64,000 bases of DNA, taken from Escherichia coli (lineage in GTDB: Bacteria > Pseudomonadota > Gammaproteobacteria > Enterobacterales > Enterobacteriaceae). The position numbers and the translations under genes are program-made. Positions 24,898-25,614 of this stretch are shown here, piece by piece (position 1 is the stretch's first letter; the number at the start of each line of letters is the position of its first letter). The stretch lies in NCBI RefSeq assembly GCF_003334355.1, contig NZ_QOWP01000002.1; one strand, written 5' to 3'. The notes under the pieces were generated by a model. The model saw only the letters and a list, made by a program, of their open reading frames with translations. It had not been told where the DNA came from and searched no databases.

Positions 24898-25614
24898 TTA
24901 TAACTCGTGTCTGTTATGGCGACACGGGAAAACATCAATATTGTCCTTCACAAATTGCAGTAATATAGAATCAACCTCTCTTGCAAGTTGGTCACAATGT
25001 ATTATAAGCATTTTGAATATGTCATCCTCTGTAATCTCGTGAAAATTTTCGGCCTTGTCTTTTAGCTCATCATATCGGATTCTTGCAGTAACCATTTTTT
25101 GGGCGAGTTCTAATAACCCCAAAGCTTGCAATTGCTGGTGAGTATGATCACTTTCAAAAAATATCCCACACTCCATTCCTTCCCAACCAACATATTCATG
25201 CCATTCATAAACCAGCATAAATGTTTGTAAAACTGGCGGTAATAATTGGATATCTGCAAAACCAAACCAAAACTTACGCTTGAGATCCCACTCATATTCA
25301 ATCGCCAATGCTATATTGTTTAAGGCATCTCCGGCATCCTTATTTTTACGCAAAATCAATTCCGTCAGTGTATAGCGTTGTTCATCAATACGCCGAAGAG
25401 CTTCTGCAATATCATAGTTTGTAGCCAACAAAACATTCTCTGCTTCCTGATGAGTGACGTCTGCTTTTGCCGTCAATATATTGATTTGGTCAATATGAAA
25501 CAACTTGATGGCTTCATCAACATCACCGCCAGTCCTCTCTAACAAACGTCTGGCAACCTGGATACCGACAGGTACGTTCTTCCGAAGTTTACGAATTTCA
25601 CTTAACCATTCCAT
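24898..25614 (-). CDS. yfbN: Uncharacterised protein YfbN with N-terminal UBA/TS-N-like helical motif
   Basis: 238 aa; N-terminus GIQVARRLLERTGGDVDEAIKLF resembles the EF-Ts N-terminal (UBA-like) signature LRERTGAG...KAL. Confidence 0.8.
   Translation of the reverse strand: MEWLSEIRKLRKNVPVGIQVARRLLERTGGDVDEAIKLFHIDQINILTAKADVTHQEAENVLLATNYDIAEALRRIDEQRYTLTELILRKNKDAGDALNNIALAIEYEWDLKRKFWFGFADIQLLPPVLQTFMLVYEWHEYVGWEGMECGIFFESDHTHQQLQALGLLELAQKMVTARIRYDELKDKAENFHEITEDDIFKMLIIHCDQLAREVDSILLQFVKDNIDVFPCRHNRHEL

Follow-up and report, generated by a model that had tools for sequence, protein, structure and literature searches.

Introduction

The N-terminal (TS-N) domain of the elongation factor EF-Ts belongs to the UBA-like superfamily, the members of which are compact right-handed three-helix bundles of ~40–45 residues. 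A UBA-like fold does not equal ubiquitin binding; EF-Ts-N has EF-Tu as its partner, and TAP-C has FG nucleoporins. To our knowledge, bacterial UBA-like modules have rarely been described beyond EF-Ts and a few enzymes. Here, we analyze yfbN, a gene located in a stretch of 64,000 nucleotides of Escherichia coli DNA (contig NZ_QOWP01000002.1 of assembly GCF_003334355.1), the whole of which is referred to as the window. YfbN is the product of a K-12 y-gene without a function in Pfam, NCBIfam, or the literature searched, and it resembles the EF-Ts domain in its N-terminal part.

Three further systems can be compared to this locus. DMP19 of Neisseria meningitidis (PF14300, formerly DUF4375) is a DNA mimic that acts by occupying the DNA-binding site of an XRE regulator (PMC3384305) and the DNA-binding sites of HU (PMC5722371). 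It is similar in fold to the C-terminal domain of YfbN at 13% identity, but DMP19 lacks a UBA-like N-module, and a sequence-level match between the two proteins is absent. YfbN likewise resembles overexpression blockers of RcaT, e.g., RacC, as it was an unflagged blocker in the same retron-Sen2 screen; unlike RacC-type blockers, YfbN is not prophage-encoded, and it is known from overexpression scoring and not from direct binding to RcaT. The last comparison applies to the C48 deubiquitinases ElaD/SseL. The elaD gene lies in the same nuoN–rbn variable region of E. coli and shares the low GC content of yfbN, but the two proteins are unrelated, and the genes are independent insertion/deletion units that do not co-occur outside E. 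coli.

Predicted Three-Part Architecture of YfbN

YfbN very probably consists of three parts, i.e., a tandem UBA-like module, a linker helix, and an acidic DMP19-like domain. The coding sequence, defined by a list of open reading frames (ORFs) with translations and by RefSeq identity, spans positions 24898–25614 on the minus strand (238 codons plus the stop codon at 24898–24900). It starts with ATG, is preceded by a Shine-Dalgarno-like AAAGGGG, and encodes 238 amino acids (aa) that are 100% identical to the RefSeq entry "protein YfbN". An AlphaFold2 (AF2) model of the protein is composed entirely of helices (pLDDT 91.4, pTM 0.77).

An earlier reading of this DNA, made from the sequence alone (the original prediction), had proposed a UBA-like or TS-N-like N-terminus followed by a second UBA-like stretch, citing the peptides VPVGIQVARRLLERTGGDVDEAIKLF and EAENVLLATNYDIAEALRRI. 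Both peptides are found in YfbN, at residues 14–39 and 57–76, respectively, and both proposals were borne out by profile comparison. A family profile built from 85 sequences was aligned to residues 1–60 of E. coli EF-Ts using hhalign, which placed YfbN residues 3–50 on EF-Ts residues 5–52 (probability 87.8%, E = 3.4e-6); the EF-Ts query was checked and is 100% identical to PDB chains. With the profile of the N-module alone, the score was 32.7. A set of 150 shuffles gave 8.8 ± 2.0 with a maximum of 17.1, which places the score about 12 standard deviations above them, and the reversed sequence scored 7.5. The second unit aligned over residues ~34–79 to archaeal NAC, Dcn1, and FAM100B with scores of 30.7, 25.4, and 25.3, respectively, and the extended UBA domain of TNK1 spanned both units (residues 19–72, score 34.7). 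Furthermore, residues 5–43 of the family profile align to residues 42–80 with a probability of 94% (E = 1.4e-7), and the two units therefore represent a tandem duplication. Judged from profiles and the structural model, the N-terminus of YfbN consists of two UBA-like units that arose by internal duplication.

The first unit, of the EF-Ts-N type, comprises residues 3–41 (25492–25608, minus strand) and was delineated by the hhalign alignment to EF-Ts 1–60, a sub-threshold UBA_4 match, AF2 helices, and column conservation. Its predicted helices are residues 4–13, 18–28, and the start of a long helix (32–51) that is common to both units, and its conserved pattern reads L10 R11 ... P15-[VI]-G17 ... 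L24 L25 ... G30 D31 ... A35 ... F39. The conserved P15-[VI]-G17 motif lies in loop 1; in UBA domains that bind ubiquitin, the hydrophobic surface of loop 1 and helix 3 contacts the Ile44 patch. The second unit, the internal duplicate of the first, comprises residues 42–80 (25375–25491, minus strand) and is predicted to form the end of helix 32–51 followed by helices 55–64 and 69–80. The predicted structure shows the three-helix bundle of the UBA-like superfamily, and the similarity to superfamily members at the profile level goes beyond chance. Ubiquitin-bound UBA domains (TDP2, Dcn1, Ede1, EDD, and NBR1) are among the top structural matches of the model, and the UBA-type pattern, i.e., a loop Gly, a G/N-D turn, and an Ala in helix 3, is kept in the 85 divergent YfbN relatives. 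The charge of the N-module is approximately neutral.

Profile searches for UBA or TS-N domains, proposed as a check alongside the original prediction, thus succeeded in profile–profile mode, and none of the curated family thresholds was reached. Among the Pfam families of the UBA clan (UBA_4, UBA_8, UBA_HYPK, CUE, and TAP_C), none attained a curated or significance threshold in YfbN. UBA_4 (PF14555) matched residues 19–42 below threshold (independent E-value (i-E) 0.0032, 17.6 bits); scanned against the 85 family members, it matched none at E ≤ 1e-3 and 21 at E ≤ 0.1, and TAP_C matched one of the 85 at the 1e-3 level. The NAC model of NCBIfam matched YfbN with E = 0.0016, far under the cut-off of the model, and searches with the single sequence and with a family hidden Markov model (HMM) against PDB sequence chains returned E-values of 0.06–2 only, none of them significant. 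The sub-threshold lists are almost exclusively UBA-like, including TNK1, Dcn1, FAM100B, Ede1, p47, OTUD7A, archaeal NAC, and EF-Ts.

The linker helix (residues 81–92; 25339–25374, minus strand) was defined by family conservation and carries the motif R-Y-T-L-T-E-[LR]-I-L-R-K. The family consensus reads eryTLTERILrk. No other linear stretch is as highly conserved in the family, and in the enterobacterial YfbN set this one is invariant. It is followed by an acidic C-terminal domain (residues 93–231; 24922–25338, minus strand), for which the predicted structure shows an all-alpha fold of the DMP19 type. A Foldseek search against AFDB50 linked this domain to a "DUF4375 domain-containing protein" of 168 aa (E = 7e-4, TMt 0.81). 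The domain contains the core motif E137-W138-x-x-Y141-x-x-W-E145-G-[FM] and the C-terminal motif L218 ... F229-P230. Its net charge in YfbN is −12 (pI 4.9), and it is negative in 79 of the 85 family members (median −7, range −16 to +7).

Conserved columns of the family are mostly hydrophobic, with the addition of R11, D68, E85, Y141, and E145. Neither Cys nor His is conserved, nothing resembles a catalytic constellation, and no Cys column exceeds 49%; by its sequence, YfbN appears to be non-enzymatic. An identity as an E3 ligase of the NEL (IpaH/SspH) type was considered for the family and rejected, with neither a conserved Cys nor a structural match to NEL. A 33% identical family member of 263 aa in the AlphaFold database (AFDB; A0AAD1F5Z9) has been labeled automatically as "Novel E3 ligase domain-containing protein", and this label looks wrong.

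Compared to Pfam, NCBIfam, and the literature searched, the fold assignment of YfbN, the tandem duplication, the fusion to a DMP19-like domain, and the breadth of the family are new. The folds themselves are not new, and there is nothing unusual about a UBA-like fold on its own. YfbN thereby gains a concrete three-part architecture, which is a modest gain in annotation with the function still unproven.

YfbN as a Putative Binder or Decoy

In our best reading, to which we assign a probability of roughly 45%, YfbN is a cytoplasmic, non-enzymatic three-part helical protein that serves as a stand-alone binder or decoy. We infer that YfbN acts by stoichiometric binding, in which the tandem UBA-like pair would provide a module for protein–protein contacts, and the DMP19-like domain, being acidic, would cover a surface of a bacterial target that is basic or binds nucleic acids. 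In this way, YfbN might serve as a decoy for, or an inhibitor of, a second protein, e.g., a toxin, a defence effector, or a DNA-binding protein. The decoy mechanism as such is doubtful; it is proposed by analogy to DMP19 and its blocking of the sites at which an XRE regulator and HU bind DNA. A duplicated UBA-like module fused to a DNA-mimic-like domain suggests such a function, which would fit an overlooked result on blockers of RcaT.

In the TIC screen of the retron-Sen2 study, overexpression of yfbN from the MOB library was an unflagged hit relieving RcaT toxicity, and yfbN was included in the blocker-validation set (bioRxiv 10.1101/2020.06.22.160242). The divergent neighbor yfbO (25769–26245 in the window) scored as a trigger when overexpressed from the same library in the TAC screen at low isopropyl β-D-thiogalactopyranoside (IPTG), and the authors mention the yfbN–yfbO linkage in a figure legend only (bioRxiv 10.1101/2020.06.22.160242). 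The arrangement recalls the linked blocker–trigger pair racC–recE of that study. One could speculate that yfbN and yfbO form a chromosomal blocker–trigger pair for retron-type abortive infection, in which YfbN would directly neutralise RcaT, with the DMP19-like domain imitating the multicopy single-stranded DNA (msDNA) of the antitoxin formed by reverse transcriptase (RT) and msDNA, and the UBA-like module acting as a protein clamp. We regard this as unlikely. If true, YfbN would be the founder of a widespread family of host-encoded, nucleic-acid-mimicking toxin blockers in Enterobacterales and Bacteroidota.

Several points weigh against the interpretation of YfbN as a binder or decoy. The structure is a prediction that was built from an alignment of eight sequences. 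Membership in the DMP19 family failed at the sequence level: the C-domain profile matched no DMP19 chain among the PDB sequences at E ≤ 10, and PF14300 gave only marginal matches (2/85 and 2/34 members at E ≤ 0.1, best 0.015). We therefore claim similarity at the level of the fold alone. The acidity is moderate and not universal, with pI values of 4.7–9.5 in the family and neutral or basic C-domains in 6 of the 85 members. Generic blockers, i.e., ClpA, ClpX, DnaJ, and InfB, were also obtained in the retron screen, so that blocking by yfbN may be indirect, and yfbN is not discussed in the main text of that paper (bioRxiv 10.1101/2020.06.22.160242). No partner of YfbN is known. A role in phage–host conflict is without genomic support, as PADLOC models gave no matches to YfbN, PHROGs gave no significant match (best E 0.027), no viral contig in IMG/VR contained the pattern of the linker motif, and BFVD contained no relative at E ≤ 1e-3; an origin of the family in phages or defence systems was rejected on these grounds. 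The sole exception is a locus adjoining a gene similar to the CBASS component Cap12, which is described below.

Distribution and Genomic Context of the YfbN Family

A HMMER search of 1.84 billion cluster representatives identified 239 clusters at 50% identity with E ≤ 1e-3, 74 of which reached E ≤ 1e-30. Nearly all of them are ~240 aa long and matched over their full length. Relatives in AFDB are "uncharacterized proteins" from Enterobacterales (Superficieibacter and Leminorella) and many Bacteroidota (Chitinophaga, Hymenobacter, Chryseobacterium, and Taibaiella), and free-living members of the Bacteroidota, e.g., Chitinophaga and Hymenobacter, account for the majority of the family. A variant of ~200 aa retains the N-module and the EW..YE..EGF core and lacks the linker region, and in at least one protein (P0162) an N-module of the YfbN type is joined to an unrelated C-terminus. 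One apparent relative of 4090 aa (P0098, E = 1.4e-27) was rejected as spurious; it is a NACHT-LRR repeat protein, the match of which sums up 29 weak repeats at profile positions 72–124. Sequences with 100% identity to E. coli YfbN also appear under the metagenome-assembled genome (MAG) "Bacillota bacterium" (JAEWTL010000023.1, a contig of 2.8 kb) and under "Streptomyces antimycoticus" (AFDB A0ABD5JR91), and these copies are almost certainly E. coli contamination.

The linker motif was used as a pattern for locus searches, and in its strict form it yielded eight genome loci. For a comparison of neighbors, the ORFs of 14 yfbN loci were subjected to all-against-all blastp and scanned against NCBIfam, with the distant lineages represented by Leminorella, Chryseobacterium, Chitinophaga, Hymenobacter, Thermoflexibacter, and one Ignavibacteria MAG. 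No conserved partner gene emerged from the 14 loci, in which neighbor families were common only to close relatives and none to distant lineages. Neighbors in the latter include KdgK, an M16 peptidase, QueD, an ABC permease, and arrays of small unknown ORFs. Such an array is present on two contigs of the Chryseobacterium type (L008, 878–7241; L020, 1847–7840), where the yfbN homolog is the last gene in a head-to-tail series of about ten small ORFs on the same strand, mostly unannotated and including a NUDIX protein, an alpha/beta hydrolase, and DUF1801. In the Ignavibacteria MAG (L022, 5611–7585), the gene just upstream of the yfbN homolog resembles the CBASS NAD+ hydrolase Cap12 (304.8 bits at a cut-off of 450) and is itself preceded by an ORF of 345 aa, a candidate cyclase; this was the only adjacency to a defence system that we saw.

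Within E. coli, yfbN belongs to a variable segment, yfbN–yfbO–yfbP (24626–27235, no strand), which lies between yfbM and nuoN and was defined by GC content and genome comparison. The segment has a GC content of 39–43%, compared to 51% for the window, and yfbN itself of 39%. It occurs in ~17–18% of complete E. coli genomes: a 3.2-kb query was fully matched in 936 of 5426, and most others matched the yfbM end only. In CFT073, yfbM directly adjoins nuoN, and both elaD and yfbNOP are absent. The dN/dS of yfbN is 0.21–0.25, compared to 0.00–0.07 for the flanking genes. The gene is therefore real and subject to purifying selection, which is more relaxed than in its neighbors. Overexpression of SlyA induces yfbN 2.8-fold, together with other horizontally acquired genes under silencing of the H-NS type (PMC5797941). 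Based on the 239 clusters, the lack of common neighbors, the low GC content, the presence in 18% of E. coli genomes, the induction by SlyA, and the dN/dS, yfbN is a stand-alone, horizontally mobile accessory gene.

Alternative Explanations

Of the alternatives to a binder or decoy, the one that survives best, an improbable one nonetheless, considers the first unit a functional mimic of EF-Ts-N, through which YfbN would bind to the G domain of EF-Tu, either to modulate translation or to shield EF-Tu from toxins that exploit it. EF-Ts-N is indeed the best sequence-profile match of this unit, in full register over 46–48 columns. Knockout of yfbN raised the yield of recombinant green fluorescent protein (GFP), but not that of asparaginase (PMC7376861), and infB (blocker) and tufA (trigger) scored alongside yfbN in the retron screen. 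The knockout phenotype is, however, indirect and was not reproduced with asparaginase, and in both structural and profile comparisons, the scores of eukaryotic UBA domains equal or exceed those of EF-Ts-N.

The residues themselves also speak against mimicry, as YfbN and EF-Ts have only scaffold positions in common (L-R, loop G, G-D, and A), and the EF-Ts residues between them are replaced. In the hhalign register, ELRERTGAG of EF-Ts corresponds to KLRKNVPVG of YfbN, and LLERTGGD of YfbN corresponds to ALTEANGD of EF-Ts, so that the coinciding positions are limited to the L, the R, the loop Gly, one basic residue, and the final Leu. The EF-Ts signature L-R-x-x-T-G-A-G ... D-C-K-K-A-L is not present in register: T16, A18, and D22-C23-K24-K25 of EF-Ts are replaced by V14, V16, and V20-A21-R22-R23 in YfbN, and the specific residues T-G-A-G and D-C-K-K are not kept. 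Of the EF-Ts N-terminal signature that had been read from the YfbN sequence, the resemblance was retained, whereas the literal residue match was one helix out of register and did not stand. YfbN further differs from EF-Ts by the tandem duplication of its unit and by the lack of a core/dimerisation domain, with no EF_TS match to Pfam or NCBIfam in YfbN or its family.

A second alternative, which we consider very improbable, corresponds to the speculation in the original prediction that the island encodes more than one protein aimed at ubiquitin-like substrates. In this scenario, ubiquitin or a ubiquitin-like protein would be the ligand of the UBA-like units, and YfbN would join ElaD in targeting (host) ubiquitin-like substrates. 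That elaD encodes a homolog of ubiquitin-like-protein proteases about 4 kb from yfbN is correct: it is located at 19871–21112, matches Pfam Peptidase_C48, is annotated as "deubiquitinase ElaD" in RefSeq, and ends 3786 bp from yfbN. Its GC content is 35%. In addition, the UBA-like fold is real and matches ubiquitin-bound UBA domains, and one relative carries the aforementioned automatic E3 ligase label. However, three unrelated genes on mixed strands lie between elaD and yfbN, and the UBA-like superfamily includes proteins that do not bind ubiquitin, e.g., EF-Ts-N, the best match of the first unit. The units resemble UBA and related domains of eukaryotes and archaea (TNK1 UBA, Dcn1, FAM100B, TAP-C/Nxf2, TDP2, archaeal NAC, and CUE), but YfbN is bacterial and apparently cytoplasmic, occurs in organisms without ubiquitin, with most family members in free-living Bacteroidota, stays under every Pfam threshold of the UBA clan, and is encoded at loci without a link to genes of the ubiquitin system.

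Co-occurrence of the two genes was determined in the 5426 complete E. coli genomes from three megablast counts, including the union obtained with a concatenated query. We found yfbN in 980 genomes (18%), elaD in 4475, and either gene in 4504. Accordingly, ~951 genomes carry both genes, ~3524 carry elaD without yfbN (79% of the elaD-positive genomes), and ~29 carry yfbN without elaD. The association is one-way, with elaD present in ~97% of the yfbN-positive genomes compared to a base rate of 82%. Linkage over 3.8 kb in a few clonal lineages would give the same enrichment, as 953 of the 980 yfbN copies are ≥99% identical, and we therefore rejected co-occurrence as functional evidence.

Outside E. 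coli, the loci of at least 11 lineages contain no gene for a C48 peptidase near yfbN. Escherichia fergusonii shows the order nuoN–yfbN–(191 aa)–yfbM–yfbK–CheV-like–rbn, and Escherichia sp. E2748 the order yfbO–yfbN–yfbM–yfbL–rbn, both without elaD. In Superficieibacter and two other enterobacterial contigs, yfbN adjoins nuoN, also without elaD, and no C48 peptidase gene lies beside the homolog in Leminorella and six Bacteroidota or Ignavibacteria loci. The original prediction had itself named a lack of co-occurrence across genomes as grounds for abandoning its idea, and this lack is what we observed. YfbN is in all likelihood independent of ElaD, and a tempting conclusion is thereby removed, since a UBA-like protein near a deubiquitinase does not make a ubiquitin-directed island.

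Least probable of all is that the UBA resemblance arose by coincidence from amphipathic helices, with yfbN being a decaying gene or encoding some generic helical protein: three-helix bundles are common, the structural evidence stems from a predicted model, and every single HMM match to UBA-type families is insignificant, but the profile–profile score, the internal repeat, the pattern kept in 85 divergent members, purifying selection, and conservation from Enterobacterales to Bacteroidota argue against it.

The yfbN Locus in E. coli

The gene order around yfbN in the window is elaB, elaA, rbn, elaD, yfbK, yfbL, yfbM, yfbN, yfbO, yfbP, and nuoN-M-L. The intergenic region between yfbN (minus strand) and the divergent yfbO (plus strand) comprises 154 bp (25615–25768, no strand). 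In a promoter and terminator scan around yfbN, including this region, matches were no more common than in shuffled sequences. Two strains carry insertion sequences at the locus. In ETEC1739 (NZ_CP122758.1), an IS1 transposase splits yfbN, and in RM14721 (NZ_CP027105.1), an IS1B is located between elaD and yfbN, and the yfbK–yfbM region that normally separates them is apparently deleted.

The elaD allele of the window is rare, being found at ≥99% identity in only 9 of the 4475 elaD-positive genomes, with K-12-type strains at ~96.5%. In contrast, the yfbN allele is widespread (≥99% identity in 953 genomes, K-12 included), and strain PSS-12 (NZ_AP027697.1) matches the window at 100% in both genes. 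Judged by these alleles, the window is not from K-12, and the elaD–yfbN region looks mosaic.

At the nuoN–rbn locus outside E. coli, the position of elaD is often taken by a CheV-like gene. Such genes, encoding CheW and response-regulator domains, lie between yfbK and rbn, at the exact site of E. coli elaD, on contigs of E. fergusonii and Superficieibacter and on one related contig (L023, 12984–13967; L006, 12772–13773; L016, 11496–12497). As relatives carry a CheV-like gene at the same site, elaD looks like a lineage-specific replacement at the rbn-side spot. Regarding rbn itself (18767–19702 in the window), precomputed Pfam matches of its product, RNase BN, include Anti-Pycsar_Apyc1 (PF23023) in addition to Lactamase_B_2; the former probably reflects the common metallo-beta-lactamase fold only.

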